Source: an uncultured Pseudomonadota bacterium
GTDB taxonomy: Bacteria > Oederibacteriota > Muellerivitia > Muellerivitales > Muellerivitaceae
DNA: 64,000 nt
Assembly (NCBI GenBank): GCA_963843375.1
Contig: CAWJKT010000011.1
Span: 256,001 to 320,000, forward strand
Reading direction: 5' to 3'
Position 1 is the stretch's first letter, and the number at the start of each line of letters is the position of its first letter. Below the pieces are notes generated by a model. That model was not told the DNA's origin and did not search any database. It saw nothing but the letters and a program-made list of their open reading frames with translations. Made by a program: the position numbers and the translations under genes. This document shows, piece after piece, positions 27,550-61,730 of the stretch.

Positions 27550-30429
27550 TTGTTGCGCCATATTCTAAAAACGATTTCCATCATTATTTATAATTCAACA
27601 TTGTTGAACCGGGTTGTGCCTATTTTTCTTTTTGCTTTTTGTCTACGCATTCCAGCTAACGCGGCATCTCCGGGGCTAATTGTTTCTGAAAATAAAGTTA
27701 CAACCACGGGTGGATGTTCCGTGACCTTAAGAGGGGTCGATGTGGACGGGTTGGAATTTTCACCGACCGGGTACGGTCCCCCCAGCGGAACTGGTGGGAG
27801 CTCGTTAGAAGTTGCGCAGGAAGCAATCACGGTGTGGCATGCCAGCATTATCCGTCTTCCCTTGAATCAAGATTTTTGGTTCGGATGTGGAAATTCGAAA
27901 GACACAACTCCCCCCAGTGCGGCCACCTATCAAAGTACCGTAAATAGTATCGTGAGTTATTGCTCTTCCGAAAACGCTTATGTCATCTTGGACCTTCACT
28001 GGTCGGGAACTTCCTCTACCGCTTCCGCTCCCTGCGGAACCGGATGGGGAGCGGCAACTGCTCAGCAGTACATGGCCGACGAAAACGCGGTGACCTTCTG
28101 GAGTTCAGTGGCGGCGGCCTATGCCAACAATCCAGCGGTAATATTTGACCTTTATAACGAACCCTATAGCAGCGGCGGAGGGGATACAGCGGCCGCATGG
28201 AGCGTCTGGCAACAGGGAGGAACGGGATCGGGAGCTTCTTTTTCCACACCCGGCATGCAGGGACTTTTAAACGCCGTCCGCGCGACGGGGGCCAACAACA
28301 TTTGCCTATCGGGTGGTCTTTCCTGGTGTTCTGATTTGACAGAAGTTGATAGCTATCCCCTTACCAACGTAGGGAACGGAATTGTTTATTCCGCCCATCT
28401 CTATGGAAGTAATGATGGAGATTCGGCCGCCAGTTGGAACGCGGAGGTTCCAAGTTCGGTTTTATCCGCCAACCCCGTATTCGTGGGGGAAATGGGGCCG
28501 TACACCAGTTGCAACGAAGATAACAGCACTTACGACTCCAACATTTTTTCTTGGATAATGGGAACTTCAGGCGTTATGGGGGGCACTGCCTGGTCCATGA
28601 CCACCAATTCCTGTCCGAACCTTCTTTCCGACTGGACTTGGGGTACGGAGGCTTGGGGTGCCGCTGTTTCAACATGGTTGGCAACGCCCGTACCCACCTG
28701 TCCCGCCCCTGGATCGCCTGTCCCAACTAACACGCCCACTTCTACTTTCACCGGTACTCCTACTCATACGTTGACTCCAACAGATACTAGAACGCCATCG
28801 AATACCCCAACCAATAGCTCCACGGAAACTTTAACCAATACTCCCACTAGAACGGTAACTCAGACCCCGACCAATACTCCAACTGGTACGGCGACCATTA
28901 CGACAACTTACACCGCTACCGGGAGTTCGACTTCCACGGCAACGAGAACCCCGACGCCGACGCCGACCAATACCCCGGCCAATACCGTGACCAATACTCC
29001 ATCTTCAACCTCCACTTTTACATTCACTGGCACGGCAACCAACACTGGAACGTCCACAGCCACCAACTCACCGACCAATACCTTCACCCGGACGGCCACC
29101 AATACCGCTACGACTACCGCCACATTCTCCGCCACGAACACTACCACGAATTCGCCAACTAATACGACTACATCCACTGTCACCAACACAGCTTCTCCCA
29201 CTATCACCAATACACCGACCTTGAGTCCGACTGGAACCTTGAGCCCGTCACTGACACCAACGCCGTCTTCCACCGCGACCAAAACCGAAACAAATACAGC
29301 CACCTCAACAGGTACAAATACCGGAACCAACACTGTTACGGCTACGCCGACATCCTCCACCACTAATACTCCGACTCAGACGGTTACATTAAGCCCCACC
29401 TTCACCGCCACCGCGACCACCTCTGCGACTTCAACTTGGACGGCAACCGAAACTCCTACCAATAGCTTGACCAAAACGACCACTAATACGCCGACCATGA
29501 CAGCTACCAACACCTTAACGAATACGGCAACCAAGACCGCTACCTTAACCGCAACGGCAAGCCCGACTTTCACGGCGACGGAAACACCCACGAACACTCT
29601 GGTGAATACGGGAACCCCTACGCTGACCTCCTCGCCAACGCCGGTGACGGTGGAAAATTCACAGGGAACGAGCCCCCCGGGCAACTCTGTGCAAGTGCCT
29701 GGAGCTTCAGGAGTGACGGTAGAACAAATAGTAATGATGAACCCGGGGAACAATTCGGTAAATTTGACAAGCCTGACTTTGACCGAAACGGGGGCAACGG
29801 CTTCGGGAATCACCTCAGTTACTCTTCTGAAAAACGGCGTGCCGGTGTCAACGGCCAATTTTACGGGAAACACCGCCGTTTTTAACTTTAGTGATACGAT
29901 TCCTGCCAGTAATGGGGCAGTGACCTACCTAGTGGAAGCGAGTTTCTCGAATACGGCGTTGGGAAGCTACCAATTTAGCATCACCAATGAAGTGGGAAAC
30001 AATGGGCAGCCAGTTCTTTTCAACCCAACGACAGTCAACGGAGCAATGATCATGGTGGGGCTGGTTACAGCGACACCCTCCTTCACACCGAGTTCGACTG
30101 CGACCTTTGCACCAACATTAACCTATTCGCCAACCGCGATCTTAACCCCTCTCCCAGGCTCTACTCCCGTCTTATATCCCAACCCTTCCTCTGGTGGGCC
30201 TGTTAATATTTCCGTTCCTCAAACCCAACCCTCGGATGTTCGGGTAGAGGTCTTTACCATCGCCTTTCGTAAGGTGCAGGATCAGTCTTTCCAACCGTTA
30301 CCCGTGGGAGAGATCATCACGCTGGATTTAAAAGATAAGTGGGGAACGCCATTGGCCAGCGGACTTTACTATGTGGTGATTACGGTCCATGGGGAAAGAT
30401 CGGTCAGTAAATTATTGATCTTGAGATGA
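27550..30429 (+). CDS. GH5 endoglucanase-like + Thr stalk + beta domain + T9SS-like CTD
   Basis: IIRLPLN, VILDLHW, DLYNEP, SAHLY, VFVGEMG; stalk ~28681-29643; CTD 30166-30429. Confidence 0.9.
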   Translation: MLRHILKTISIIIYNSTLLNRVVPIFLFAFCLRIPANAASPGLIVSENKVTTTGGCSVTLRGVDVDGLEFSPTGYGPPSGTGGSSLEVAQEAITVWHASIIRLPLNQDFWFGCGNSKDTTPPSAATYQSTVNSIVSYCSSENAYVILDLHWSGTSSTASAPCGTGWGAATAQQYMADENAVTFWSSVAAAYANNPAVIFDLYNEPYSSGGGDTAAAWSVWQQGGTGSGASFSTPGMQGLLNAVRATGANNICLSGGLSWCSDLTEVDSYPLTNVGNGIVYSAHLYGSNDGDSAASWNAEVPSSVLSANPVFVGEMGPYTSCNEDNSTYDSNIFSWIMGTSGVMGGTAWSMTTNSCPNLLSDWTWGTEAWGAAVSTWLATPVPTCPAPGSPVPTNTPTSTFTGTPTHTLTPTDTRTPSNTPTNSSTETLTNTPTRTVTQTPTNTPTGTATITTTYTATGSSTSTATRTPTPTPTNTPANTVTNTPSSTSTFTFTGTATNTGTSTATNSPTNTFTRTATNTATTTATFSATNTTTNSPTNTTTSTVTNTASPTITNTPTLSPTGTLSPSLTPTPSSTATKTETNTATSTGTNTGTNTVTATPTSSTTNTPTQTVTLSPTFTATATTSATSTWTATETPTNSLTKTTTNTPTMTATNTLTNTATKTATLTATASPTFTATETPTNTLVNTGTPTLTSSPTPVTVENSQGTSPPGNSVQVPGASGVTVEQIVMMNPGNNSVNLTSLTLTETGATASGITSVTLLKNGVPVSTANFTGNTAVFNFSDTIPASNGAVTYLVEASFSNTALGSYQFSITNEVGNNGQPVLFNPTTVNGAMIMVGLVTATPSFTPSSTATFAPTLTYSPTAILTPLPGSTPVLYPNPSSGGPVNISVPQTQPSDVRVEVFTIAFRKVQDQSFQPLPVGEIITLDLKDKWGTPLASGLYYVVITVHGERSVSKLLILR

Positions 30430-30646
30430 CTCTAAGTTTTTAAAACGGTGAAGAGTCTTTTCTTGAATAATCAATCTAATAATTCGGGATTTTATCCACA
30501 TAATTTATTGAGTTGGTTTTTATGACAGACGAGATTTACCGGTAAACTAAAAAAGATCAAGTTATAAGGCTTACCGAATGTACAAGAAGCCAATATTGAG
30601 GTAGTCTTACTATTCGACTCCTAGTTGTGCCCGGCTAAGGGGAAAA

Positions 30647-33600
30647 GTGAAAACGTTTTTAAATAAAACAAAAAACCTAATTGTCCTGACATTGGCCTTT
30701 TTACCTATGTCGATTTCTCTTTCCTTTGGACAAAACGTCAATTCCGGTTCCCCCAAATACCCTTTTCCTCATGATGGCCAAATTCCTTACACCGTTACGG
30801 CAGGCATGCCCAACATCGACTCTCAAGCGGCCATGGATTCTTCCGTTTCGAATATGTACGTTTCCTGGTATGCCAATGCGGTTACGGCCGCCAGTTCCGT
30901 CTGTTCCGGGTGTCTTCGTGTTTACCGGAATACCAACAACGATGACACCGTGTCTGAAGGCATCGGCTACGGACTGTTGTTTGCCGTGGAAATGGCGGAC
31001 CAAACCCTCTTCAACGGGTTATTCAATTACGAACAGAGCTTTCTTGATGGCAATCATTTAATGAATTGGCAAATCACTTCGGGCGGTTCCGTGGAAAGTT
31101 CGGGCGCTGCTACCGATGCGGATGAAGATATTGCCATGGCCCTTCTGATGGCCAATACCCAATGGGGTTCGGCAGGCGCGATTAATTATTTGACTAAGTT
31201 CCAAGATCAGGTTGCTTATATTTATAACACTGAAATCGACAATGGTTCTAATTACGCGGTCTGGCCTGGAGACCAATATCAGTCTCCCTATTATTCCAGT
31301 TATATGGAACCCGCTTGGTACCGTTGCTGGGAAAGTCACGATACCTCTCATAATTGGAGCCAAGTCATCAACTGGGTTTACGGTACTTATTTCGACCAGA
31401 TCTATTCAAGTTATGCCACAGGGTTTATGCCCGAAACCGCGTCCGGGAGCCCCGTAACTCCGGATACCATGACTATGGGTTACGACGCTTCTCGTTACCC
31501 CATTCGTACTGGAATTGACTACCTCTGGAACGGAACTGCCGCCGATGGGGCATTAACTTATGTAGGGGCCATGGCAAAAAGCGTCACACAAGGGGAAGCC
31601 ACTGTCGGAAGCTGGCAGAACGAAATCGAATCTTATTGGAACATTTCTACCGGTGCGGCCACCGGCTCCAATACGGATGGGGTCCAGGTGGGTGGCGCGT
31701 TAGTGGCTATGATGGTGGCGGGAAACCAATCAGCCGCGAACACAGTTTGGCCCATGATCCTGCCGGGTTCGGGCCATGGTTTTATGGATAATGGTTTCCA
31801 ATATTTCCAGGACAGCCTTTGCCTTTGGGGGGCAATGGTGGGTTCGGGTAATTTCATCAACATGCCTTGTGGAGTTAATCCTTGCGGGTCGGTCGCTTGT
31901 ACACCGACTCCGACTCCCGTTCCTCTGAGTTGTTTCATGTTGTCTTCGCCTATGGAAACCGGCCAAAATTACAATGCTACTGACGGTTATTGGTTTACTT
32001 TCAGTTTCGCTTCCGTCAGTAACACTCCCGTAGCCACGCCAGAGTTAGCGACTGTCTCAGGTGCCGCCTCTATCATTGACGGAGTTGATGGGGGAGCTGA
32101 CGGCGATATCTATGCCGCTCGGGCTATTGGTGCTTTCGATATCAACGGTGGAACTACTCAAGTAGTTTATCCGCCCACGGGAACCACCAGCGCCTCTGAA
32201 ACCGTGTATGCCGGTTTTGCCCTCGGAACGGAACTCTCACCCGCGGGGGTGACCAGTGGTTACAATAATTTGGAAGATTTGGATGAAATTACTTTCTGGT
32301 GCAAGTCTTCCATTGGGGGGATGGTGGTTAATCCAAATGGAACGGCTCCCGCGACGGATATTTGGATGCGGATGAATTTTGTTAACCCGTATATCACAAC
32401 CGCCACTGGTGCAGGTTTAGTTGACTATTATGGATTTAATTTCGCAGTCACGGCGGCAAACACCTGGCAGCAATTCACCGTTCCCTTAAGCAGTATTACT
32501 AACCAAAACTGGGGAACTGGATCCCAACCGCCGGTCAGCGGAGGAGTCAGTTACGTTATGCCGACGGCACCCGGCGCGACGGTTGCGGCGCCTGCGGCGA
32601 ACGCCTTAAGCCAAATTTCCTCTATCGAATGGCAAACCGAAAGTAATACTGGCGCCACTTATCCCGTTTCTTTTACCTTTTGGATAGATCAAGTGTGCTT
32701 GACTTTTGAAAACGATAGTCCGACTCCCACCGTGGTTATTGTGAATACCGCCACTCCGCTTCCCACCGCCACGCCCGTGAGCCAACCCACGGGAACCCCG
32801 ACTGGAACGCCTACCATAACCGGGACTCCCACAAAGACGGTTACAAGTAGTCCAACAAATTCATCCACCTTCACTCTCACATCTACTGAAACCAATAGCC
32901 CTACGGCCACTCTGACAAACACTTTGACTAAGACCGCTACTGCGACGCCGACCTCTACCTTGACCTCCACGCCGACATTAACCGTTACCAACAGCCTGAC
33001 GGCGACTTCCACGAGCACTTCAGCCAGCACTTCGACCAATACGGTAACCACTACCGCGACGGGGACCACGACTAATACCGCTACCCGTACCGCCACCGCT
33101 TCACCCTCCTATACCCCGACAGCTACCCCCACTAATACCCTGACGAATACTTCGACCAATACGGCCACTTCCACCACTACCCGTACCACCACTGCCACAG
33201 CTACCAACACCGCCACTTCCACCATCACGCTGACGGCGACCAATACGGCTACCGGTACCGCCACCTCAACGACGACCAATACCGCCACTCCCACTATCAG
33301 CGATACGCCGACCTTGAGCCCCACGGGAACCATCTTGACCTCGACGCCTACCTCGACTCCCACCAAGACGGCCACGAGTACGGCAACCTTCACGTCCACG
33401 AATACCGGCACCAACACCGCCACGGATACGACGACCATGACGGCGACCAATACCCCGACCAACACGACGACCCAAACCCCGACCAAGACCGCCACGAATA
33501 CGGCCACCGGTACCACGACGAATACGGCGACTCAAACGACCACCTTGACGCCCACCAGCACCTTGGCGAACACCGCGACCAATACGGCTACTTCAACACC

Positions 33601-34855
33601 TTCAAGTACGGCGACGCTCACCACGACTTTCACGGCCACCACTACACCAACGAATACGGCTTCTTCAACTACGACGTTGACACCTTCAAGCACTTTCGCC
33701 AATACCGCCACGAATACGGCTTCATCCACGCCCACCAGTACCTTTGCCGAGACCGCCACCAACACCGCCTCCCTGACGCCCACGGCAAGTCTTCCCAACA
33801 CACCCATAAACACCCCAACCAGTACCCCAACCAACACGGCAACCGAAACCAGGACTTCCACACCCACCAACACCTTGACGAATACGGTTACCAATACCAC
33901 CACTTCCACATTCACCAATACCTTTGCCACTACGGCCACTCAAACCCCTACAGCCACACCTACCAATACCTTGGCGAATACCGCGACCAATACGACAACC
34001 GCTACGGCTGTTTACACCGCTACCTTCACCATCACCGTAACCGGAACACCCACTCAAGTGACGGTCCAGGCTTCGCAGGGAACGAGTCCTCCTTCGAATT
34101 CCACCCAAGTGGCGGGAGCTTCCAGCGTGACGATACAGCAGATCCAACTGACCAATCCGGGTACCAATGTGGTGACTTTAAGCAGTTTGACCCTGAGCGA
34201 ATCAGGGGTTCCGCCCACGGGGATCACTTCCATATCGCTTGTGGACGACGGAACGGTGATCTCCACCGCCAGTTTCAGTGGAACGACGGCGACCTTTAGC
34301 TTAACGTCGAGCAATACCATTCCCGCCAGCAGCGGGGCGGTGACTTATGAAGTGGTGGTGAACTTCTCCAGCAGCGCGGCGGCAGGGAACTACGCCTTCA
34401 GTATCACCAGCGGTGCGGGGAGCAACGGCGAGCCGGTTCTATTCGCCAATATGCCGGTTGGCGGGGCGACAATCACGATCGGTTCGGGGAGTACCACGGC
34501 GTCCGCGACACCCACTTCCACGCTTCAACCGGGTTCAACGCCCGTTGTATACCCGAATCCGGCGACAGGCACAGAACCGGTCACGGTGGCGGCGACAACG
34601 AGTCAGGCGTCAGATTCGATGACGGTGCAGGTCTTCACGGTGGCCTTCCGGGAAGTGCAGAACAACGAGTACTCCACTTCGTCGCCGGGCGTGACGGCTT
34701 CCGTAAGCAGCGGAAGTACCACCGCCAAGACATGGCGTATACCTTTGATCCTCAGTGACAAGTGGGGCACGCCCCTGGCCAGCGGCCTTTATTACGTGGT
34801 GATCTCCAACCATATCGGCTACCACGCGGTGACCAAACTCCTCCTTTTGCGCTGA
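30647..34855 (+). CDS. GH8 + CBM-like jelly roll + Thr stalk + beta domain + T9SS-like CTD
   Basis: DTVSEGIGYG, AATDADEDIA.ALL.A..QWG, YDASR; second domain with ITFWCK..WQQFTVP..FWIDQV; CTD 34541-34855. Confidence 0.9.
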   Translation: MKTFLNKTKNLIVLTLAFLPMSISLSFGQNVNSGSPKYPFPHDGQIPYTVTAGMPNIDSQAAMDSSVSNMYVSWYANAVTAASSVCSGCLRVYRNTNNDDTVSEGIGYGLLFAVEMADQTLFNGLFNYEQSFLDGNHLMNWQITSGGSVESSGAATDADEDIAMALLMANTQWGSAGAINYLTKFQDQVAYIYNTEIDNGSNYAVWPGDQYQSPYYSSYMEPAWYRCWESHDTSHNWSQVINWVYGTYFDQIYSSYATGFMPETASGSPVTPDTMTMGYDASRYPIRTGIDYLWNGTAADGALTYVGAMAKSVTQGEATVGSWQNEIESYWNISTGAATGSNTDGVQVGGALVAMMVAGNQSAANTVWPMILPGSGHGFMDNGFQYFQDSLCLWGAMVGSGNFINMPCGVNPCGSVACTPTPTPVPLSCFMLSSPMETGQNYNATDGYWFTFSFASVSNTPVATPELATVSGAASIIDGVDGGADGDIYAARAIGAFDINGGTTQVVYPPTGTTSASETVYAGFALGTELSPAGVTSGYNNLEDLDEITFWCKSSIGGMVVNPNGTAPATDIWMRMNFVNPYITTATGAGLVDYYGFNFAVTAANTWQQFTVPLSSITNQNWGTGSQPPVSGGVSYVMPTAPGATVAAPAANALSQISSIEWQTESNTGATYPVSFTFWIDQVCLTFENDSPTPTVVIVNTATPLPTATPVSQPTGTPTGTPTITGTPTKTVTSSPTNSSTFTLTSTETNSPTATLTNTLTKTATATPTSTLTSTPTLTVTNSLTATSTSTSASTSTNTVTTTATGTTTNTATRTATASPSYTPTATPTNTLTNTSTNTATSTTTRTTTATATNTATSTITLTATNTATGTATSTTTNTATPTISDTPTLSPTGTILTSTPTSTPTKTATSTATFTSTNTGTNTATDTTTMTATNTPTNTTTQTPTKTATNTATGTTTNTATQTTTLTPTSTLANTATNTATSTPSSTATLTTTFTATTTPTNTASSTTTLTPSSTFANTATNTASSTPTSTFAETATNTASLTPTASLPNTPINTPTSTPTNTATETRTSTPTNTLTNTVTNTTTSTFTNTFATTATQTPTATPTNTLANTATNTTTATAVYTATFTITVTGTPTQVTVQASQGTSPPSNSTQVAGASSVTIQQIQLTNPGTNVVTLSSLTLSESGVPPTGITSISLVDDGTVISTASFSGTTATFSLTSSNTIPASSGAVTYEVVVNFSSSAAAGNYAFSITSGAGSNGEPVLFANMPVGGATITIGSGSTTASATPTSTLQPGSTPVVYPNPATGTEPVTVAATTSQASDSMTVQVFTVAFREVQNNEYSTSSPGVTASVSSGSTTAKTWRIPLILSDKWGTPLASGLYYVVISNHIGYHAVTKLLLLR

Positions 34856-35002: not shown

Positions 35003-35139
35003 TCCTTTGAATTGGGCTTTAAGATTAGCCGGCGGTTGGCTTTTGAGGTCGGAAATAAAGAATTTCTTGTCATTTCATTTTCTAGGGTCCGAAATGGAAT
35101 ATTTCGGGTTGAAATGGCACTAAGTCATTAGGAGATCCT

Positions 35140-35709
35140 TTGGACGAGCGGGAACTGGTTGAACGGATCCTAAAGGGTGACGAAAAGGCCAAAACGGAGT
35201 TTTATCGGGCTTACCAGCAAAAGCTCTATGGCTTTTGCGTGTACTTCATGGGGTCCAACGACCCGGAAATTGAGGACATCCTTCAGGAAGCTTTTCTGGC
35301 TGCTTTCCAAAAATTAGGCCAGTTTGAGTTTCGTTCCAGCCTGGATACCTGGTTGACCCAAATCTGTATTCACCAATGTTACCGGCATTTCCGAAAGCGC
35401 GGCCGAATGGTGACCCAGGCTGAAGAGGATTTGGAGGAAAGGCTAAAGCCCCTTGCTTTGGAGACCGCCCAACAGGCGGACCGAGATTTGGAAAGGAAGA
35501 CGAGGATGGAAACCGTCGACCGGGCCCTGGGAAGCATGGGGGAACCTTGTAAAAAGATGCTCCAACTAAGAATGAAGGAAAGCGCAAGTTACATTGAGAT
35601 TGCCCGGGCGTTGAAAGTTCCCATAGGAACGGTTATGTCTCGCTTGGCCCGTTGCACGGCAGGGCTGAAAGAAAGGGTAGAGAAGATGTTGGAAGAGGGG
35701 AAGCAATGA
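35140..35709 (+). CDS. ECF sigma-70 factor
   Basis: AGGAG RBS + TTG; EDILQEAFL, FRSSL.TWL, SYIEIA..L.VPIGTVMSRLAR. Confidence 0.93.
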   Translation: MDERELVERILKGDEKAKTEFYRAYQQKLYGFCVYFMGSNDPEIEDILQEAFLAAFQKLGQFEFRSSLDTWLTQICIHQCYRHFRKRGRMVTQAEEDLEERLKPLALETAQQADRDLERKTRMETVDRALGSMGEPCKKMLQLRMKESASYIEIARALKVPIGTVMSRLARCTAGLKERVEKMLEEGKQ

Positions 35710-36362
35710 CAAACTTGGTGAATGAATTTTTCAACCGGAATTTGACCGAGGCCGAAGCTCAGAGTCTAGAAGAGCTTTTGGGTAATTCCCCCGAGGAAGC
35801 CATTCGGTTCGGGGAAAAAATGAAGCAAGAATATCTAGCCATGGGTCTGCCGATTCCCACGATTCCGAAAGATTTCGGACTCTCTCATCAGGTTCTTTCA
35901 CTGACCAAGTTGGCTTTGTTAGCAACCACCTTGTCACCAGTTATTCTCGTTTGGTCCCTGTGGCCTAAAACAACGTCCTGGAGATATCGCAAACTACAAC
36001 TTCGCCGCGCCAATGGAGAAAGTTGTGGTTCCCGCCGCCCTTTCCAGGCCAAAAACAATATTGCCGCCTCCGCCCCTATTAGATTCCCCAACGTCTGACG
36101 GGATCCTCGGTCTGAGGGAACCCGTTTGAGTGTCGTCGTTGAATTGGATAAACCTGCGCCGGTGGCAGTTTGCATCCTCGACCCCAAAGAGCAAACTGTG
36201 CGAACCCTTTACCAAGGAAATCTTTCTCCGGGGAAATGGTCAATCCATTGGGATGGGCTTCTATCCAACGGATCTCAGGCTCCTACAGGGGATTATCGTA
36301 TCTGGGTTAAGTCCGGAACGACCGAGATGTCCAAAAACGTGAGTATTGAAACGGGAAAATAG
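35706..36362 (+). CDS. Putative anti-sigma factor with TM helix and C-terminal FlgD-like Ig domain; reading frame disrupted ~35970-36110
   Basis: ATGA overlap with sigma; N-terminal LTEAEAQSLEELL, TM helix, Pro-rich linker in a shifted frame, then VRTLYQG.L.PG...I.WDG...NG..AP.GDY. Confidence 0.7.
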
Positions 36363-36415
36363 GTTATCATTTCCACGCTGTAGGTTATGAATAGGAAGAG
36401 CCTTCCGGGAATGTT

Positions 36416-37825: not shown

Positions 37826-37847
37826 AGGCGGCACAAAGAGGTTTTTA

Positions 37848-49009: not shown

Positions 49010-52000
49010 TTGGAAAAAATGCGGATCTTAAAAGTAATATTTTCAGCCCTCATTATTTTGTTTATTTTGGCAAACCTTTCTTACTTATATGCTCAGGCGA
49101 CCATTGCCGTGAACGCTGGTACAACCATTGTCACCATTCCAAACACCATTTATGGCAACAACGCACAGTATTACAACGCAGCCAACAATGGGACGAATGC
49201 CACTTACAATACCGCCATGCAAGTTTCCGGTTGCCATAACATCCGTTGGCCGGGTGGGTCCGAGGCCGATATCGTGAATTGGAATAATCTTGTTTGCGAG
49301 GATACCGGCGCCGCCACGACTCCCCAGTTCATAACTTTCCTTCAAACTATCGGTGGAACCATGCAGCCCATCGTGAATTTCAGCGGTTATTGGTGCAGCG
49401 GCGGGGCAGGGTCTGGCACCAGCACTCAATACACCTCAGCTGAAGCTGTCAGCTTAGCTGAAGCGTGGGTCACCTGGAACATGAGCAATACCGGTTCGGC
49501 CAAAGCGACCTATTGGGAAGTCGGCAACGAGACTTACGGTACTTGGGAACAGGGAGGGGGTATCAGTGGCACGGACTACGGAGTGACTTTTGCCACTTAT
49601 TACACCGGTATGAAAGCGATCGATCCCACCATCCAGATCGGGGCGGTAGCGTCGCCCGGTGCAACGGATTATAACGACTGGACATCGGAAATGCTCACCG
49701 CCGCCAAGGCCGGGGGTGTCGTTCCCGACTTCCTGATCATCCACAATTATCCTGTTACCGCCGGTGCTCCGGCGGGCCAAGCCACGGATTCTTACATCCT
49801 CAGTTATCCCGCCACTGTCGCAACCCAAACCGCCAGCTTGAACTCTATAGTTTCCTCTGCTTTAGGTAGTTCCTACGTTGGCCAAGTGAAATACTTCATG
49901 ACCGAATACAACTCCACTCTTGGACCCGACGCCCAAACCGATGAATATGTGAATGCCATGTTCGTGTCCGAATGGATACTGAATTGTGCCGAAAATGGCT
50001 GGATTGGGGCGAATCTTTGGGCCTCTTTAAACGGAGGTTCTCCTGATTATGGTTTTCTCAACGCTACCACCTATGCTCCTTACCCGGATTATTACGTTTT
50101 CCCGATGCTGACCGAAAAATTTGGAAACAGTATGGTTACCTGCTCGAGTAGTGTTACCACTGTAAATGCCCACGCAGCAATAAACACGGCGGGAGATCTC
50201 ACTCTTTATTTGGTCAATAATAGCCCGACGGCAACAATGGCCACTACGATTACCGTGGCAGGGTTTACACCCTCTTCATCGGGCCAAGCCTGGGTTATGC
50301 TGCCTTCGGGTACCAGTTCCTCGGGGGCGCCGCAAGAAGTTCCTAGTATCTCAATCAACGGCACGGTGAATCCCGCCCCCTCCAATATCGCATCCATTGC
50401 CGGAGTTGCACAAACTACCGGGTCTACTTTTACGGTAAGTCTTCAACCCAGTGAAATGGACATGATCGTTATTCCGGGTACCAGTTCAACGGGATCGACC
50501 AGTACACCCACCGAAACCCCGACCGTCACCCCCACCAACACGCCGACGAAAACAGCGACGGCTACAGCGACGAACAGTCCGACAGCCACTCGCACGAACA
50601 CCGCCACGAATACGGCCACCTCCAGCGCCACGAAGACGGCTACACCCACAATGACTAACACTGTGACCAATACAACCACCGTTACGGCCAGTTCGACTCC
50701 GACTTCCAGCCCTACCGCCACTCGCACGAACACCGCCACGAATACGGCCACCTCCAGCGCCACGAAGACGGCTACACCCACAATGACTAACACTGTGACC
50801 AATACAACCACCGTTACGGCCAGTTCGACTCCGACTTCCAGCCCTACCGCCACACGAACGAATACCGTGACGAACACGACTACTTCCAGTCCAACAAGGA
50901 CCCCCACGACGACCGCGACCAATACGGTGGTCAACACTTTGACGTCAACGCCGTCCAGTACAGCTACAGGCACGGCGACTACCACAAGGACAAATACCGT
51001 GACGAATACGACTACTTTCAGCCCAACGGACACCACTACGGCTACCGCGACCAACACGACGGCGAATACGGCGACTCAAACTCCCACGGCGACGCCTACG
51101 AATACCCTGGCTAATACCGCAACCGATACTCCGACTACGACTGCTTCAAACACCGTCACTAAAACGACGACCTCCACCCCTACGAACACCTTGGCGAATA
51201 CGGCGACTCAAACCGCTACGGCGACGCCCACCAATACTTTGGCTAATACCACAACCGACACTCCAACTACGACCGCTTCAAATACCGTGACTAAAACAAC
51301 GACGTCCACCCCCACGAACACCTTGGCGAATACGGCGACTCAAACCGTCACATCAACGCCCAGCAATACCGTGGTTAATACCCCTTCGAACACCACCACC
51401 CAAACGACGACCTTTACCCCCACGAACACCTTGGCGGATACAGCGACTCAAACTCCCACGGCGACGCCTACGAATACCTTAGCTGATAGCGCAACCAATA
51501 CACCAACCGCAACCGCTTCGAATACCGTCACTAAAACGACGACCTCCACCCCCACGAACACTTTGGCGAATACGGCGACTCAAACCGTCACATCAACGCC
51601 CAGCAATACCGTGGTTAATACCTCAACCTCCACTCCAACCGCTACCGCTTCGAACACCGCCACCAAAACAACGACTTCAACCACTACGTTAACTCCCACT
51701 GAAACATTGACGAATACCCTGACTCATACGACAACCTCCACGGCTACCACTACCGTTACTTTCACGATCACGCCGACCGCCACTCCAACGGCGGTGACAG
51801 TACAGGCTTCACAAGGATCGAACCCTCCCTCGAATTCCACTCAAGTGGCGGGAGCTTCCGGCGTGACCATACAGCAGATTCAGTTAACCAATCCGGGCAA
51901 TAATCCAGTTACCTTGAGCAGTTTGACTCTTACGGAAGCAGGGACTTCGCCCACGGGAATCACTTCCGTATCGCTTGTGGACGATGGGACGATTATTTCC

Positions 52001-52570
52001 ACCACCAGTTTCATCGGATCAACCGCCACCATTAATTTCAGCAATATCATTCCTCCCAGTAACGGGGCGGTCACTTACCAGGTAGTGGTGAATTTCTCGA
52101 ATAGCGCGGCGACAGGGAACTACACATTCAGCGTGACAGGCGGGGCAGGGACCAATGGCCAGGCAGTCCTTTTTGCCAATATGCCCGTACCCGGATCGGT
52201 CGTTACTATCGTGATGGCGACACCTTCGAATACTCCCGCGGCAGCCACATCCACCATCACTTCAACCGCCACCCCTACGGCTACCTCCACGGGTCACCTG
52301 GGCGTCGTGGTTTATCCCAACCCGGTAACGGGGTCGACGGTAAGTGTGCTTCCGCCGGCATATTCAGGAGTTTCGGATGTTCAGGTGGAGATTTTCACCA
52401 TAGCCTTCCGGGAAGTTCAGGAGGAGTTCTTCCGGAACGTGCCGTCGGGTAAGGCGGTAACGCTGGAGTTAACCGATAAATCGGGAACTCCTTTGGCGGA
52501 TGGGATCTATTACATCGTCGTCATCGTCGATGGACACCGCTCCATCGGAAAAATGCTCATCATCCGTTGA
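49010..52570 (+). CDS. Clan GH-A hydrolase (GH51/GH79-like, arabinofuranosidase-like) + Thr stalk + beta domain + CTD
   Basis: IRWPGGSEAD, YWEVGNETYG.WE, FLIIHNYP, FMTEYNS; family assignment tentative. Confidence 0.7.
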   Translation: MEKMRILKVIFSALIILFILANLSYLYAQATIAVNAGTTIVTIPNTIYGNNAQYYNAANNGTNATYNTAMQVSGCHNIRWPGGSEADIVNWNNLVCEDTGAATTPQFITFLQTIGGTMQPIVNFSGYWCSGGAGSGTSTQYTSAEAVSLAEAWVTWNMSNTGSAKATYWEVGNETYGTWEQGGGISGTDYGVTFATYYTGMKAIDPTIQIGAVASPGATDYNDWTSEMLTAAKAGGVVPDFLIIHNYPVTAGAPAGQATDSYILSYPATVATQTASLNSIVSSALGSSYVGQVKYFMTEYNSTLGPDAQTDEYVNAMFVSEWILNCAENGWIGANLWASLNGGSPDYGFLNATTYAPYPDYYVFPMLTEKFGNSMVTCSSSVTTVNAHAAINTAGDLTLYLVNNSPTATMATTITVAGFTPSSSGQAWVMLPSGTSSSGAPQEVPSISINGTVNPAPSNIASIAGVAQTTGSTFTVSLQPSEMDMIVIPGTSSTGSTSTPTETPTVTPTNTPTKTATATATNSPTATRTNTATNTATSSATKTATPTMTNTVTNTTTVTASSTPTSSPTATRTNTATNTATSSATKTATPTMTNTVTNTTTVTASSTPTSSPTATRTNTVTNTTTSSPTRTPTTTATNTVVNTLTSTPSSTATGTATTTRTNTVTNTTTFSPTDTTTATATNTTANTATQTPTATPTNTLANTATDTPTTTASNTVTKTTTSTPTNTLANTATQTATATPTNTLANTTTDTPTTTASNTVTKTTTSTPTNTLANTATQTVTSTPSNTVVNTPSNTTTQTTTFTPTNTLADTATQTPTATPTNTLADSATNTPTATASNTVTKTTTSTPTNTLANTATQTVTSTPSNTVVNTSTSTPTATASNTATKTTTSTTTLTPTETLTNTLTHTTTSTATTTVTFTITPTATPTAVTVQASQGSNPPSNSTQVAGASGVTIQQIQLTNPGNNPVTLSSLTLTEAGTSPTGITSVSLVDDGTIISTTSFIGSTATINFSNIIPPSNGAVTYQVVVNFSNSAATGNYTFSVTGGAGTNGQAVLFANMPVPGSVVTIVMATPSNTPAAATSTITSTATPTATSTGHLGVVVYPNPVTGSTVSVLPPAYSGVSDVQVEIFTIAFREVQEEFFRNVPSGKAVTLELTDKSGTPLADGIYYIVVIVDGHRSIGKMLIIR

Positions 52571-52572
52571 GG
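50528..52572 (+). repeat. Direct repeat copy 1 (stalk + beta domain + CTD coding region)
   Basis: Matches 56131-58175 at offset 5603; appears identical by eye from ~50936 to the stop codon. Confidence 0.95.
50585..50848 (+). repeat. Exact tandem repeat, 2 x 132 bp (44 aa), in the stalk
   Basis: GCCACTCGCACG at 50585 and 50717; next unit begins at 50849. Confidence 0.93.
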
Positions 52573-52653: not shown

Positions 52654-54460
52654 ATGCCGCTTCGAACTTCGGAAATTAAAGCCCACTTTGAAGGCCTTTT
52701 AGAATACGAGGCCTTTCTTTCCATCTTAAAATATTATGTTGACCTGAACTGTTTCGTCGTGCCCCCTACGGATTCGAAGGATATATGGGCGGCGGTATAC
52801 CATCATCAACGATTAGAATCTCTTTTCGATTTCGAAAAAAAATATAACTTTGTCCGTAACTGGGACCTTTTGACGGATAACGTTTTTGAAAACAAAAACA
52901 AGGGTAAACCCCTTCTTGTAGAGAATCTGGGATTTTATGATATTTTCACGCCGATTCGTAAAAAGGGAAAGCGGCTGGGAACCCTATTGTCTGGGGCATT
53001 CGCCGATAAAGAATTGACCTATCCTCACTTGCGGGAAAGTTGGAACCGGTTGACCGGTCAAACCGCTTCTCCCGAAAATACGGAGTTTCGTGAATTCGTC
53101 AGGGTGATGCTGGAAATTCCAGTTCTCGAGGGAGGGGTTCTATTAGCCTATCAGGAAGCCCTTGAAATCTTCGCCAACATTTTAACCCACGAAGAAAACA
53201 GGCAAGCCCAAAAGCGGATTCGGGAATTAATCGTAAATGTTTTTTCCAAGAACATTCCCCACAGTTTTTGGATGAGCTGGGTATTGGGGCTTCCCACGCG
53301 CCAGACCACACCGACTTGGAACATAAAGGTTCAGAACCTTGACTGGGTACGGTCTGAAATCGGTATTACTCGAGTTCCAACCACCGTCATTACGGCCATT
53401 CCAGTGAAACCCACGGAACGCAAAACCGATTCTATTGAAGAGATGATCCGTATTTACCGGTTCCAACGCCGAAGTTTTTCTTTCGCCCGAAACCTTCCCC
53501 AAACGGTTGGGGGAAAGCTTGAAAACTACGGGGCGGTTTTCGTCGATTTCCCCGGACCCCGAAAAGAGCCGGCCTCAGCGCCGTCAACAAGTCCTGGAAG
53601 CGGCGGAACGCATTCATCAATTCTCCGAAGATATATTGGGCGGTCCAGCCTTGGTTGGAATCGGAGAAACGGTCGCGCCCGGGGAACTCTTAAAGGAATC
53701 TCACCGCCAGGCGGTACTGGCCCTCCACCTCGGGCGTCTATCCGGAAAGAAACTGGTTTTTTTTAGCCTTTCCCGGGATGAAAAAACAGAAGGTCTGTTG
53801 AAATTGAGGAAGCTCTTACTGGGGTTGAGGCGGCAAATTGAGACGGCTTCATTTTCGGGAGTGGAATCAGTCCTTGATGAGTATCTCCACGAAGTACTAA
53901 CCCTTTCCTTTCAAAATCCCGAGGAAATACGCTGGCATTTGCAATATGGGATTATTCATTTGGTGGAAGCCATGAAAAATCTAACCGACCTAGGCGAAAA
54001 AGAAACGCGTGTTTTTTATGAAAGTCTTGCGCTTTCGCTGGATGGAACTGGAACCACTCAAGAAATGGTTTTGGCTTTCAAGGAAGCGATGGAAAAATTT
54101 TTGAAGTTGACGCATGGCAAAGGCTCGCTGGCGGAAAACTATTCTATCGAGAAGATAAAGGATTATGTCGACAGGCATTTTGAGGAGCACTTGCGGATAT
54201 CAAGGCTTGCTGGGATGGCGAAGATTTCTATTTCTACCCTCAGCCGCCGTTTTAAAAAAAGTACGGGAATGGGATTGGAAATCTATCTCCAAAATCTGCG
54301 ACTGGAGAAAGCGCGCCGGTTGTTAAAAACCGGAGGTCTTCCCGTGTCCCAAATCGCGAAAGCTTGCGGGTTTGGGTCGAGTTCCTATTTCATCCGTTTG
54401 TTCCGTAGAAAAACAGGAATTTCACCCCAAAAATTCCGTCAAAACCCTAAAAAGGTTTGA
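52654..54460 (+). CDS. AraC family regulator with large N-terminal (PocR-like) sensor region, frameshift near 53547
   Basis: C-terminal YLQNLRLEKARRLL..VSQIAKACGF.SSSYF.RLFRR.TG.SP..FR; the two ORFs join at GAVFV / SPDP. Confidence 0.87.
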
Positions 54461-54476
54461 ACGAAAAACTTTTTCG

Positions 54477-54696: not shown

Positions 54697-57600
54697 ATGG
54701 GCGGGCATAATTGTCGTTTGGCCCGATTGAGGAATAAATTGATGTGCTTTTTAAGAAAAATTAAAATTTGGTTTTTCATTGCGAGCTTATTCGGTCTTGC
54801 TTTTTCAGCTTCAGCCCAAACCGCAACCATCAATGCCAACACCACAAACCAATTCATCCGTGGTTTTGGGGCTTCCAGCGCTTGGCATACCGGCGCCTAC
54901 ACCGCCGCTCAAGCTACGATTTTTTGGGACGATACCACCATGAATGGAAACAACCCCGCAGGAATCGGGTTGTCCATGCTGCGTTGCCGAATCCCGCCCG
55001 ATAATCCCACCACTGGCAATTCGACCAGTGGAAGTGACATCACCGATACAGGGGAAATAGCCGTTATGAACCAGGCCAAAGGCATGGGCCTTAGCCAGAT
55101 TTGGGCCACTGAATGGTCTGTCCCCGCTGTTTGGAAAAGTAATGACAGTTTGGATAACGGCGGAACCATTGAAGCGGCTGATTATCCCAATTACGCCAAG
55201 TACCTTCTTGATTATGTTAATTATTGTCAGAGTCAAGGCGTCACATTAATGTGCGTTTCGGCACAAAACGAACCTGATCAGAATGTCACCTATGAATCCG
55301 GAATCTGGACAGGGCAGGTTTTTCACGATTTCATTTCGGAAGATGAAGGAGCGGAATTTAAGGGCAATGCCACTAAAATCATGATGCCGGAGCCTTCCAA
55401 AAACGATCTTTTGACTGGGGGTTGCACCGGGGATGGAGACGCAACTTGTTCCTTAAGTGATGCCGCTGCCGCCACCTATATTTCTTTTATTGGCACTCAC
55501 CTTTATGGTTCAGGACCTTTGGCCTTCGCTGACACCCAAGAAAATGCCCCAACAGGCGTAACAAGAGAATATTGGGAAACCGAGATGATGGACTACAACG
55601 GAGGGGCGGCTTCCGATGATTCGATGACGGATGGTCTCGCTACGGCGACTTTAATCCAAAACTCCATGAGTGTCAGCATGAATGCTTATCATTACTGGTG
55701 GCTGGAATGTGAAAACAGCAATACGAACCAAGGACTAATCGATTACGATGGAACGACCGTTCCCCAAAGAACTTGGTGCATGGGCAATTTCAGTCGGTTT
55801 ATCCGTCCGGGCTATTACCGGATGGGCGGCACCATTACTTCTTTAGCGAACGTTTCAATTACAGCTTATAAGGATAATGTCGGGACGCCTGTGACCTTCG
55901 TTATCGTGGCAATCAACTCGGGAAATTCTGCCGCCAACCAAACCTTTACATTAAGTGGGATTACTACCACCTCAGTAACGCCCTGGCTGACCGATTCCAG
56001 TAACAACCTTACTCAACAAACCGCGGTAGCTGTTTCGGGAGGAAGTTTCACCTATTCCATGCCGGTTTCCAGTGTCGTGAGTTTTGTAGGGGTTAACAGC
56101 GCTACCGGCTCAACCAACACCTTCACCCCGACCCCCACCAACACGCCGACGAAAACAGCGACGGCTACAGCGACGAACAGTCCGACAGCCACTCGCACGA
56201 ACACCGCCACGAATACGGCCACCTCCAGCGCCACGAAGACGGCTACACCCACAATGACTAACACTGTGACCAATACAACCACCGTTACGGCCAGTTCGAC
56301 TCCGACTTCCAGCCCTACCGCCACACGAACGAATACCGTGACGAACACGACTACTTCCAGTCCAACAAGGACCCCCACGACGACCGCGACCAATACGGTG
56401 GTCAACACTTTGACGTCAACGCCGTCCAGTACGGCTACAAGCACGGCGACTACCACAAGGACAAATACCGTGACGAACACGACTACTTTCAGTCCAACGA
56501 GCACCCCCACTCCCACCGCAACCAATACAGTGGTAAATACTTTGACGTCAACGCCGTCCAGTACAGCTACAGGCACGGCGACTACCACAAGGACAAATAC
56601 CGTGACGAATACGACTACTTTCAGCCCAACGGACACCACTACGGCTACCGCGACCAACACGACGGCGAATACGGCGACTCAAACTCCCACGGCGACGCCT
56701 ACGAATACCCTGGCTAATACCGCAACCGATACTCCGACTACGACTGCTTCAAACACCGTCACTAAAACGACGACCTCCACCCCTACGAACACCTTGGCGA
56801 ATACGGCGACTCAAACCGCTACGGCGACGCCCACCAATACTTTGGCTAATACCACAACCGACACTCCAACTACGACCGCTTCAAATACCGTGACTAAAAC
56901 AACGACGTCCACCCCCACGAACACCTTGGCGAATACGGCGACTCAAACCGTCACATCAACGCCCAGCAATACCGTGGTTAATACCCCTTCGAACACCACC
57001 ACCCAAACGACGACCTTTACCCCCACGAACACCTTGGCGGATACAGCGACTCAAACTCCCACGGCGACGCCTACGAATACCTTAGCTGATAGCGCAACCA
57101 ATACACCAACCGCAACCGCTTCGAATACCGTCACTAAAACGACGACCTCCACCCCCACGAACACTTTGGCGAATACGGCGACTCAAACCGTCACATCAAC
57201 GCCCAGCAATACCGTGGTTAATACCTCAACCTCCACTCCAACCGCTACCGCTTCGAACACCGCCACCAAAACAACGACTTCAACCACTACGTTAACTCCC
57301 ACTGAAACATTGACGAATACCCTGACTCATACGACAACCTCCACGGCTACCACTACCGTTACTTTCACGATCACGCCGACCGCCACTCCAACGGCGGTGA
57401 CAGTACAGGCTTCACAAGGATCGAACCCTCCCTCGAATTCCACTCAAGTGGCGGGAGCTTCCGGCGTGACCATACAGCAGATTCAGTTAACCAATCCGGG
57501 CAATAATCCAGTTACCTTGAGCAGTTTGACTCTTACGGAAGCAGGGACTTCGCCCACGGGAATCACTTCCGTATCGCTTGTGGACGATGGGACGATTATT

Positions 57601-58173
57601 TCCACCACCAGTTTCATCGGATCAACCGCCACCATTAATTTCAGCAATATCATTCCTCCCAGTAACGGGGCGGTCACTTACCAGGTAGTGGTGAATTTCT
57701 CGAATAGCGCGGCGACAGGGAACTACACATTCAGCGTGACAGGCGGGGCAGGGACCAATGGCCAGGCAGTCCTTTTTGCCAATATGCCCGTACCCGGATC
57801 GGTCGTTACTATCGTGATGGCGACACCTTCGAATACTCCCGCGGCAGCCACATCCACCATCACTTCAACCGCCACCCCTACGGCTACCTCCACGGGTCAC
57901 CTGGGCGTCGTGGTTTATCCCAACCCGGTAACGGGGTCGACGGTAAGTGTGCTTCCGCCGGCATATTCAGGAGTTTCGGATGTTCAGGTGGAGATTTTCA
58001 CCATAGCCTTCCGGGAAGTTCAGGAGGAGTTCTTCCGGAACGTGCCGTCGGGTAAGGCGGTAACGCTGGAGTTAACCGATAAATCGGGAACTCCTTTGGC
58101 GGATGGGATCTATTACATCGTCGTCATCGTCGATGGACACCGCTCCATCGGAAAAATGCTCATCATCCGTTGA
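54697..58173 (+). CDS. GH30 (xylanase-like) + Thr stalk + beta domain + CTD (alternative start ATG 54742)
   Basis: QFIRGFGAS, GIGLSMLR, SAQNEPD, GTHLYG, WETE, NAYHYWW, GNFSRFIRPGY. Confidence 0.9.
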   Translation: MGGHNCRLARLRNKLMCFLRKIKIWFFIASLFGLAFSASAQTATINANTTNQFIRGFGASSAWHTGAYTAAQATIFWDDTTMNGNNPAGIGLSMLRCRIPPDNPTTGNSTSGSDITDTGEIAVMNQAKGMGLSQIWATEWSVPAVWKSNDSLDNGGTIEAADYPNYAKYLLDYVNYCQSQGVTLMCVSAQNEPDQNVTYESGIWTGQVFHDFISEDEGAEFKGNATKIMMPEPSKNDLLTGGCTGDGDATCSLSDAAAATYISFIGTHLYGSGPLAFADTQENAPTGVTREYWETEMMDYNGGAASDDSMTDGLATATLIQNSMSVSMNAYHYWWLECENSNTNQGLIDYDGTTVPQRTWCMGNFSRFIRPGYYRMGGTITSLANVSITAYKDNVGTPVTFVIVAINSGNSAANQTFTLSGITTTSVTPWLTDSSNNLTQQTAVAVSGGSFTYSMPVSSVVSFVGVNSATGSTNTFTPTPTNTPTKTATATATNSPTATRTNTATNTATSSATKTATPTMTNTVTNTTTVTASSTPTSSPTATRTNTVTNTTTSSPTRTPTTTATNTVVNTLTSTPSSTATSTATTTRTNTVTNTTTFSPTSTPTPTATNTVVNTLTSTPSSTATGTATTTRTNTVTNTTTFSPTDTTTATATNTTANTATQTPTATPTNTLANTATDTPTTTASNTVTKTTTSTPTNTLANTATQTATATPTNTLANTTTDTPTTTASNTVTKTTTSTPTNTLANTATQTVTSTPSNTVVNTPSNTTTQTTTFTPTNTLADTATQTPTATPTNTLADSATNTPTATASNTVTKTTTSTPTNTLANTATQTVTSTPSNTVVNTSTSTPTATASNTATKTTTSTTTLTPTETLTNTLTHTTTSTATTTVTFTITPTATPTAVTVQASQGSNPPSNSTQVAGASGVTIQQIQLTNPGNNPVTLSSLTLTEAGTSPTGITSVSLVDDGTIISTTSFIGSTATINFSNIIPPSNGAVTYQVVVNFSNSAATGNYTFSVTGGAGTNGQAVLFANMPVPGSVVTIVMATPSNTPAAATSTITSTATPTATSTGHLGVVVYPNPVTGSTVSVLPPAYSGVSDVQVEIFTIAFREVQEEFFRNVPSGKAVTLELTDKSGTPLADGIYYIVVIVDGHRSIGKMLIIR

Positions 58174-61715: not shown

Positions 61716-61730
61716 TGTAAGGAATACACC

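Follow-up and report, generated by a model that had tools for sequence, protein, structure and literature searches.

An island of stalked plant cell-wall enzymes with type IX-type C-terminal domains in a bacterium assigned to candidate phylum FCPU426

Genes of the island

The 64,000-nucleotide stretch of contig CAWJKT010000011.1 analysed here (positions 256,001 to 320,000; hereafter the window, in whose numbering coordinates without a contig prefix are given) encodes at 27550-58173 a set of stalked plant cell-wall enzymes tagged with a common C-terminal domain (CTD). This island comprises thirteen genes on one strand, and its features are listed in Table 1. Six of the enzymes share one plan, in which an N-terminal signal is followed by a catalytic head, a Thr/Pro stalk of 337-458 residues and the CTD; the heads belong to glycoside hydrolase (GH) families GH5, GH8, GH28 and GH30, polysaccharide lyase (PL) family PL4, and clan GH-A. 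The CTD is carried by seven island proteins, the seventh being the LamG/DUF11 protein at 37848-39227, and in five of the seven a 137-residue immunoglobulin (Ig)-like module stands before it. The GH53 enzyme has the reversed layout, with a lipoprotein-type signal, an N-terminal stalk and the head last. Together, the island enzymes cover cellulose/glucan, xylan, and both the backbone and the side chains of pectin.

Much of this had been anticipated in a first-pass annotation made from the sequence without database searches. The six enzymes composed of signal, head, Thr stalk and C-terminal modules are open reading frames (ORFs) as described there, with stalk and CTD in all six, and the lipid-anchored stalked GH53, the PorV-like barrel, the extracytoplasmic function (ECF) sigma pair and the AraC regulator were all recovered by Pfam, NCBIfam or ORF analysis. 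The C-terminal modules are shared as far as the CTD is concerned, in seven proteins rather than six, but the Ig-like module is missing from GH28 and from the LamG protein. The label GH51-like for the enzyme at 49010-52570 did not hold: no Pfam family matches this protein, and in phmmer searches of the PDB it weakly resembles both GH39 beta-xylosidases (E 1e-6) and GH51 arabinofuranosidases (E 8e-5). On these matches it is best called an unassigned clan GH-A member. The statement that SusD, dockerin, cohesin, SLH and sortase are lacking agrees with our scan of the window proteins, among which none of these families was found, and extends in part to the genome level, where SusD (PF07980; control Bacteroides thetaiotaomicron positive) and type I dockerin (PF00404; two controls positive) are each found in 0/5 genomes.

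The window belongs to a metagenome-assembled genome (MAG; G000) in 32 contigs, and the whole island is syntenic in G021, a comparison genome of the same genus that is 99% complete in 5 contigs, including three membrane paralogues and a STAND-TPR regulator upstream. Several genes are split in the MAG by single-base indels, namely the PEP carboxylase gene (7683-10512, minus strand), the anti-sigma, PL4 and PocR-AraC genes, and the gene of a SprA-like protein (C15:110180-115226). Relative to the MAG, the contigs of 4/4 public DNA runs from two studies have one additional C at 40069 in the PL4 gene and, between 35971 and 36362 in the anti-sigma gene, five to six indels of one base each. In G021, PL4 (1319 residues), the anti-sigma factor (214 residues, with the CTD-like domain at residues 134-205) and PocR-AraC (602 residues) are intact. 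Because the run contigs differ for PL4 and the anti-sigma gene, and the G021 genes are intact, the splits in these three genes are assembly errors and not pseudogenes. Long genes of this MAG are under-called by ORF-based annotation.

Table 1. Features of the island and related genes in the window
Feature	Coordinates (strand)	Matches	Architecture and remarks
GH5 enzyme	27550-30429 (+)	Pfam GH5 104.8 bits	Head residues 85-351, Thr/Pro stalk 373-710, Ig-like module 697-832, CTD 875-958
GH8 enzyme	30647-34855 (+)	Pfam GH8 94.9 bits	Extra middle region; stalk residues 689-1114, Ig-like module 1136-1274, CTD 1300-1401
ECF sigma factor	35140-35709 (+)	Sigma70_r2 54.5 bits, TIGR02937 87.7 bits	G021 orthologue 91% identical
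Anti-sigma factor	35652-36362 (+)	CTD-model match 36126-36362	One membrane helix; C-terminal CTD-like (FlgD_ig-type) domain
PorV/PorQ-family outer-membrane barrel	36416-37825 (+)	NF033709 111.5 bits, TPR_2 30.6 bits	C-terminal TPR tail
Lectin-like LamG/ConA-type, DUF11 secreted protein	37848-39227 (+)	DUF11 29.9 bits; Laminin_G_3 19.2 and Por_Secre_tail 18.9 bits, both below cut-off; TIGR04183 21.4 bits (cut-off 23)	Weak type A CTD; candidate surface sensor
PL4 rhamnogalacturonan lyase	39431-43332 (+)	Pfam Rhamnogal_lyase 30.9 bits, fn3_3 71.3 bits	Stalk, Ig-like module, CTD; single gene, frames 39431-40081 / 40081-43332
GH53 galactanase	43357-45588 (+)	Pfam 263.6 bits	Lipoprotein-type signal (Cys20), stalk residues 27-408 (381 residues), no CTD
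GH28 polygalacturonase	45842-48649 (+)	Pfam 188 bits	Stalk residues 416-856, CTD, no Ig-like module
Clan GH-A enzyme (GH39/GH51-like)	49010-52570 (+)		Stalk, Ig-like module, CTD
PocR-type sensor and AraC HTH regulator	52654-54460 (+)		AraC HTH at 53507-54460
GH30 (XynC-like) enzyme	54697-58173 (+)	Pfam GH30 34.9 and 32.2 bits; NCBIfam XynC 181 bits, below 650-bit cut-off	Stalk, Ig-like module, CTD
Lipoprotein outside the island	14857-16344 (-)	No known family	N-terminal stalk residues 21-133; same architecture class as GH53
GH44 enzyme	16682-18298 (-)	Pfam 193.5 bits	Signal peptide, neither stalk nor CTD

C-terminal domains, stalks and shared cassettes

A CTD model built from the tails in the window and iterated on the ORFs of the genome matches 81 ORFs genome-wide, and in 79 of these the domain ends no more than 30 residues from the stop codon, so the pattern is not due to chance. 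Counting CTD proteins with such a custom model had been proposed in the first-pass annotation, and the count for this genome is 79. In searches of the PDB, a profile of 73 CTD sequences aligns over its full length with the C-termini of type IX secretion system (T9SS) proteins and its cargo, namely PorU (E 5.3e-11), PorZ (9.9e-9) and the NucA CTD taken from a complex with a T9SS substrate (8glk_D, 7.2e-7), and also matches a further CTD, 8glj_D (6.3e-4). An AlphaFold2 model of the PL4 cassette (residues 815-1083; pLDDT 88.9) consists of two beta-sandwiches. Among the 48,161 representative chains searched with VIA-align, the best fold match of the modelled CTD is the CTD of PorU (Z 12.0, rmsd 2.3 over 95 residues, 22% identity), followed by PorZ (Z 10.8), the mirolase CTD (Z 10.6) and the NucA CTD (Z 9.2), with 22-26% identity to solved T9SS CTDs across the matches. 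Foldseek with the two-domain model gave generic tandem-Ig matches only (TM <=0.35). The only library match of an island tail above cut-off is FlgD_ig in PL4 (33.4 bits, cut-off 27), and three CTDs elsewhere in the genome exceed the Pfam Por_Secre_tail cut-off. Profile, predicted fold, terminal position, and the YPNP, G-x-Y-Y and K-L-L motifs agree in marking the island tails as T9SS-type CTDs, and the cargo can be said to bear type A CTDs in spite of library scores below cut-off. By a crude test, an N-terminal hydrophobic stretch is present in 60/74 CTD proteins, compared with 996/2358 of all genes. For the Ig-like module, the fold matches are sialidase N-terminal domains (6mnj, Z 11.4; 8gn6, Z 10.2), the CLIPPER adhesin domain (Z 9.4) and cohesin 2vo8 (Z 8.9).

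Stalks of at least 60 residues are encoded by 104 genes of this genome, in 58 of the 79 CTD proteins and in 46 proteins without a CTD. No more than 30 residues separate the end of the stalk from the CTD or the Ig-like module in 43 of the 58, the other 15 having extra domains in between; in 30 of the 46 non-CTD proteins it lies right behind the N-terminal signal, mostly with a lipobox-like Cys. Genome-wide, the stalk therefore adjoins a predicted anchor, be it CTD or lipid. This is the best argument for tethers rather than linkers from a catalytic domain to a carbohydrate-binding module (CBM), and the arrangement would fit tethered surface display. Stalk lengths are also alike within a genome, as seen in the related loci L085 (246/242 residues), L086 (264/298) and L087 (409/411). 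CTD matches occur in 41/41 genomes of the phylum, at 15-126 per genome. A Thr-rich segment of at least 40 residues precedes the CTD in 24 of 30 CTD proteins from five distant families; these segments are mostly shorter, at 45-250 residues. Among the 72 CTD ORFs outside the window that were scanned for heads, 12 have glycoside hydrolase domains (three each of GH5, GH12 and GH30, and one each of GH9, GH44 and GH62) and two are GH74-like; malectin, CBM9 or CBM11 modules occur in some, five are peptidases, five have DUF7948 and/or SBBP, and 27 match no Pfam family.

Different heads share near-identical 3' ends, which indicates that stalk-and-tail cassettes move between heads. The 3' ends of the clan GH-A (50528-52572) and GH30 (56131-58175) genes, coding for stalk, Ig-like module and CTD, are 96.9% identical over 2,048 nt, and those of GH8 (32890-34851) and a GH5 gene on another contig (C32:15714-17639) are 98.0% identical over 1,962 nt. 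Metagenomic sequences show the same cassette attached to GH5, 8, 9, 18, 28, 30, 43, 44 and 53, PL4, CE4, pectinesterase and expansin. The shared 3' ends point to recombination or gene conversion in the repetitive stalk DNA, which has a periodicity of 132 nt. An assembly artefact is unlikely as the source, because the copies differ from each other.

Two sets of genes may have a bearing on stalk glycosylation. Four PMT_2 genes are present in the genome, and one of them (GT-C type, 741 residues, 119.6 bits; C7:59613-60089) is located about 1.6 kb downstream of a stalked CTD gene (C7:56467-58035); glycosylation of the stalks by their products is possible. In the window, three tandem polytopic membrane paralogues of 435-450 residues with 44-46% mutual identity are encoded at 18340-22598 on the minus strand, likewise in synteny in G021. 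They share a conserved Asp45/Glu85 pair within their first loops, and their family counts at least 454 metagenomic proteins, none with a Pfam domain. Their neighbours according to a protein language model are PMT_2/GT-C glycosyltransferases. That identity found no support elsewhere (Pfam matches in 0/42 members, hhalign probability of 0.55% against PMT_2 proteins of the same phylum, empty PDB profile search), and the paralogues are unproven candidates for stalk glycosylation.

Secretion parts, sensor cassette and host

The search of the genome for SprA, PorK/L/M/N and PorU that the first-pass annotation had proposed gave a mixed outcome: a distant SprA-like protein is present, PorL/M/N were not found by models that had no positive control, PorU was not found, and the GldK (PorK) matches are FGE-sulfatase proteins. 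The SprA-like protein, of about 2000 residues, matches TIGR04189 in three segments of 118.5, 72.3 and 25.7 bits in this genome, each below the 200-bit cut-off. It occurs in 58 of 61 genomes of the phylum, in five of which the cut-off is exceeded when segments are summed, and is by sequence a distant relative. For PorU, the NF033707 model matches only at about positions 955-1095, which is the CTD of PorU itself, both in this genome and in the family of the window, and matches to the catalytic region are confined to two distant genomes. PorP/SprF (TIGR03519) has no real match in 5 genomes. The GldK matches are weak (86 and 45 bits, cut-off 350) and fall on two plain FGE-sulfatase proteins with no PorL/M/N families among their neighbours, and we reject these genes as PorK.

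PorV-like barrels, by comparison, are numerous. The PorV_fam model (NF033709) gives 24 matches in 19 genes of this genome, with 12 genes above the 90-bit cut-off. The island barrel exceeds this cut-off, which makes it a PorV-type shuttle at family level; the equivalog models are not reached (37 bits against 250 for PorV, 89 against 220 for PorQ). Many of the barrels have TPR or fn3 tails, and when the whole PorV-TPR protein is searched as a profile against the PDB, TPR matches dominate. Directly upstream of 10 of the 19 PorV-like genes lies a CTD ORF, often with overlapping stop and start codons. Some barrels occur in other surroundings. At C25:9996-16333, a pair of PorV-like barrel genes, of which one encodes an fn3 domain, stands between flhB-like and flagellar rod genes. 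At C14:115402-119479 and C14:132054-136108, TPR-tailed barrels follow CTD proteins and precede signalling genes, a SpoIIE phosphatase and HATPase switch in one case and a histidine kinase with response regulator in the other; the pairing of barrel and regulator is thus not confined to ECF sigma factors.

In the island, the regulatory genes form a cassette in the order ECF sigma factor, anti-sigma factor with CTD-like end, PorV-TPR barrel, and lectin-like CTD protein. The CTD-like end of the anti-sigma factor is seen in an alignment of 6 orthologues. A scan of species-representative genomes with the PorV-TPR protein yielded 6 loci at 62-77% identity, five of which have the full cassette. The lectin-like gene adjoins the barrel gene in 6/6 loci, just downstream of the matched barrel in five, and just upstream of it in L087 and in the second copy of L084. 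Stalked enzymes flank all six loci, and a CTD was detected on them in five; in the sixth, L083, the stalked ORFs downstream are either broken up or cut off by the end of the locus, and the CTD matches are on other flanking ORFs. Similar sets of sigma factor, anti-sigma factor with CTD and barrel are found elsewhere in this genome (contigs C16, C12 and C6).

A k-mer count over seven upstream regions revealed no shared ECF-type promoter. A palindrome of the type TGAAACCGGTTTCA occurs at the intergenic positions 30536, 34988, 48833, 48899 and 54478, and at 30920 inside the GH8 coding region. The genes that it precedes, by about 100-240 nt, are those for GH8, ECF sigma, GH-A and GH30. Its 9 strand-matches compare with 1.7 expected, for a pattern derived from these same regions, and with a genome background of 2.2 per 64 kb. 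In G021, the orthologues of the ECF sigma, GH-A and GH30 genes have it upstream, as does one additional CTD gene. We consider it a candidate operator. Between the membrane paralogues and the island lies the gene of a STAND NTPase (NB-ARC) with TPR array (1116 residues; 22685-26035, plus strand). It has a syntenic counterpart of 82% identity in G021 and could be another regulator acting on this region. The genes downstream of the island (58720-64000, plus strand) encode a Rieske protein, a split cytochrome b and multihaem/c-type cytochromes, which is an ordinary respiratory bc-type complex unrelated to the island.

As for the host, the six nearest titled records are labelled candidate division FCPU426 (three), "uncultured proteobacterium" (two) and "uncultured bacterium" (one). 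The two closest (L082 and L083) are the proteobacterial ones and FCPU426 labels appear on more distant records, and public MAG labels in this lineage are inconsistent. NCBI files FCPU426 under "Bacteria candidate phyla", and the host does not fall in the Fibrobacterota-Chlorobiota-Bacteroidota (FCB) superphylum. The labels support a bacterium of candidate phylum FCPU426, and not the canonical Bacteroidota T9SS host that would have spoken against the first-pass annotation. An FCPU426 16S cluster has been linked to the cellulolytic Goldbacteria, placed next to Firestonebacteria and Elusimicrobia and endowed with GH5, 8, 9 and 44 (PMC7031533); T9SS is not discussed in the accessible part of that paper. 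DNA nearly identical to the island is present in soils; for 35100-41500, no RNA runs were listed as containing it.

Mechanism, alternatives and known systems

Taken together, we consider it somewhat probable that the island encodes a regulated battery of FCPU426 plant-cell-wall enzymes tethered on the outer membrane by a reduced T9SS-like pathway. The enzymes, in which N-terminal signals are observed, would leave the cytoplasm by Sec export, and their type A-like CTDs would then be recognised and the outer membrane crossed through the distant SprA-like protein, a role assigned here to parts that are present in the genome. The CTD may next be passed to a PorV/PorQ-family barrel and probably kept there as a non-covalent anchor; because no PorU sortase was found, its replacement by a lipid-linked glycan is improbable. 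With its 337-458 residues, the Thr/Pro stalk, which is probably O-glycosylated, would hold the head about 85-160 nm off the membrane, a geometric estimate at 0.25-0.35 nm per residue. The same geometry would be reached by lipoproteins of the GH53 kind through an N-terminal lipid anchor. Expression is probably governed by the cassette of ECF sigma factor, CTD-like anti-sigma factor, PorV-TPR barrel and lectin-CTD protein, in a manner resembling the PorA-PorV-SigP relay, with a PocR-AraC regulator also placed within the island. A bolder version, in which type IX-like export is motorless and sortase-free, an SprA-like pore and 15-30 PorV-like barrels hold the CTDs permanently, the cassettes recombine, and the lectin-CTD/PorV-TPR/anti-sigma relay detects the substrate and turns on a brush of enzymes on glycosylated stalks of about 100 nm around the cell, is tentative and in our judgement doubtful.

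Several results weigh against the tethered battery. The MAG is 80% complete with 4% contamination, and two of the six nearest records have the proteobacterial label. All island tails score below cut-off with Por_Secre_tail (PF18962; 17.2-22.3 bits, cut-off 27) and TIGR04183 (16.7-21.4 bits, cut-off 23). The 73-sequence profile matches FlgD Ig domains too (E 1.7e-10), and the fold alone is no proof of export, nor is it decisive, as unrelated beta-sandwiches reach Z 9-11 with less sequence identity. In 56/61 genomes the SprA-like protein fails to reach the TIGR04189 cut-off, and neither it nor the PorV barrel finds a match in phmmer searches of the PDB. Known T9SS requires a PorLM motor and a PorKN ring, and we know of no precedent for a working SprA pathway without an energy source. 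GldM was found in 0/61 genomes, 60 of them at least 90% complete, and GldL and GldN in 0/5, four of which are at least 96% complete and one single-contig, with models that matched in no control genome. The only Bacteroidota control was B. thetaiotaomicron, which is silent for GldL/M/N, and a divergent motor could have been missed; on the sequences searched, absence of the three is probable. Finally, surface display, barrel anchoring, stalk glycosylation and the energy source are inferred, and the location of the enzymes is deduced from their architecture.

One alternative is that these are free secreted enzymes with the order catalytic domain, linker and CBM, in which the Ig-like module, the CTD or both bind polysaccharide and the stalk is an exaggerated Pro/Thr linker. 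Such linkers between catalytic domain and CBM are a textbook design, the module before the CTD is a beta-sandwich whose fold matches include sialidase carbohydrate-binding-type domains (6mnj, 8gn6) and cohesin 2vo8, the cassette is attached to many families of carbohydrate-active enzymes (CAZymes) in metagenomes, and no sortase for covalent anchoring was found. This explanation nevertheless appears unlikely, since only 11 of 79 CTD proteins have the Ig-like module while 58 have the stalk, and since the island GH28 combines stalk and CTD without the module. Moreover, 30 stalked non-CTD proteins, mostly lipoproteins, have the stalk behind the signal and no binding module at that end, so the stalk tracks the anchor and not a CBM, and ten PorV-like barrels are encoded right behind CTD proteins.

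Highly unlikely is a reading in which the C-terminal domain is merely a structural FlgD-type Ig domain, the proteins remain periplasmic or sit on the inner side of the outer membrane, and the PorV- and SprA-like genes serve other ends. The CTD profile does match FlgD Ig domains and T9SS CTDs with about equal strength, the searches for motor, ring and sortase were negative, and some PorV-like barrels of this genome are in a flagellar locus (C25). Against this, the domain is strictly terminal in 79/81 ORFs, the number of CTD proteins per genome (15-126) co-occurs with the SprA-like protein across the phylum, stop and start codons of CTD-protein and PorV-like genes overlap, and the cargo is made up of endo-acting enzymes whose substrates, insoluble polymers, have no access to the periplasm. 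We give marginally less credence again to an ordinary, complete T9SS of an FCB-type organism whose motor, ring and sortase escaped detection, either in an incomplete genome or through over-specific models. The incompleteness of this genome, the GldL/GldM/GldN searches that stayed silent in every control, and the two FGE-sulfatase proteins with weak GldK matches would allow for it, but GldM is missing from all 60 genomes at least 90% complete and GldL, GldN and PorP from all four at least 96% complete, including the single-contig one; the PorU model finds only CTD-like tails in the family of the window, no PorL/M/N families lie beside the GldK-like genes, and three of the six nearest named records are FCPU426 and not an FCB phylum.

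The preferred reading of a tethered, T9SS-related battery supports the suggestion in the first-pass annotation of a T9SS-related pathway outside Bacteroidota, through the T9SS-type tails (borne out by profile and fold against solved T9SS CTDs), the PorV-family barrel, the distant SprA-like protein and the FCPU426 labels. The claim of a display strategy distinct from polysaccharide utilization loci (PULs) and cellulosomes stands in that SusD and dockerin were not found, and falls in that the strategy was known already: PUL-free CAZymes with T9SS CTDs are described in the Bacteroidota Ca. Paraporphyromonas polyenzymogenes and Cytophaga hutchinsonii (PMC5831590). As in those PUL-poor Bacteroidota, the FCPU426 genome has many glycoside hydrolases with type A CTDs in operon-like clusters that replace PULs and cellulosomes (PMC5831590). 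Unlike the present host, those organisms encode the needed T9SS components, whereas here PorL/M/N and PorU were not found in FCPU426; and the stalks here are 337-458 residues long, the words "linker" and "threonine" being absent from the accessible text of that paper (PMC5831590). With cellulosomes and Sus-type PULs the island shares a multi-enzyme, cell-associated attack on plant polysaccharide, its display here being deduced from genes, but it differs from both in having no dockerin or SusD (0/5 genomes each) and no scaffoldin, each enzyme having its own tether.

The closest parallels for the anchoring are found in Porphyromonas, where PorU and PorZ are anchored via PorV and PorQ (PMC5562754). 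As for PorU-PorV and PorZ-PorQ in P. gingivalis, a surface protein retaining its CTD would sit on a barrel of the PorV/PorQ family, a pairing suggested here by gene adjacency at 10/19 barrels (PMC5562754). In Porphyromonas, however, most cargo is cleaved by PorU and linked to anionic lipopolysaccharide (A-LPS), while no PorU was found here and there are about 19 barrels per genome, many with TPR or fn3 domains. Linkage of a CTD cargo gene to a barrel gene of its own also recalls the type B CTDs and PorP/SprF-like shuttles of Flavobacterium johnsoniae (PMC12618676, PMC9143113), but the barrels here are of the PorV/PorQ and not the PorP/SprF family, and the CTDs are of the type A/FlgD_ig kind. 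With respect to regulation, the lectin-like PorA of P. gingivalis binds PorV through its CTD and passes a surface signal on to SigP (PMC7712824), and the island cassette resembles this PorA-PorV-PorXY-SigP relay in combining a lectin-like CTD protein, a PorV-family barrel and an ECF sigma factor (PMC7712824). In contrast to that relay, a membrane anti-sigma factor with CTD-like end would stand in place of the PorXY two-component step, a TPR tail is present on the barrel, and the targets are probably the neighbouring enzymes and not secretion parts.

T9SS has been described as unique to the FCB superphylum (PMC12421860, PMC11205867, in their accessible text). The system in FCPU426 would work in the manner of a T9SS display pathway but departs from it in several features: no PorU sortase was found, the host is not FCB, and the motor and ring were not found, in searches without positive control. 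Novel in this case are the phylum of the host, a reduced set of secretion parts, the great length of the stalks, the sensor cassette of sigma factor and PorV-type barrel, and the many PorV-like barrels. Our literature search found no work linking FCPU426 to T9SS; it met "Goldbacteria" and "type IX secretion" together only through a reference title, and did not find "threonine-rich", "T9SS" and "linker" together.

If the proposed scheme is true, an outer-membrane core of T9SS composed of CTD, SprA-like pore and PorV-like barrel works outside FCB and without PorKLMN and PorU. Current models treat PorKLMN and PorU as essential, and the minimal requirements of T9SS and its evolutionary origin would then become testable. 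The anti-sigma factor, with its copy of the sorting domain of the cargo, would tie surface display to transcription. For the biology of these bacteria, the scheme would add a third route to plant biomass besides PULs and cellulosomes, one that gives each enzyme a very long tether of its own and that would be relevant to carbon turnover in soil.

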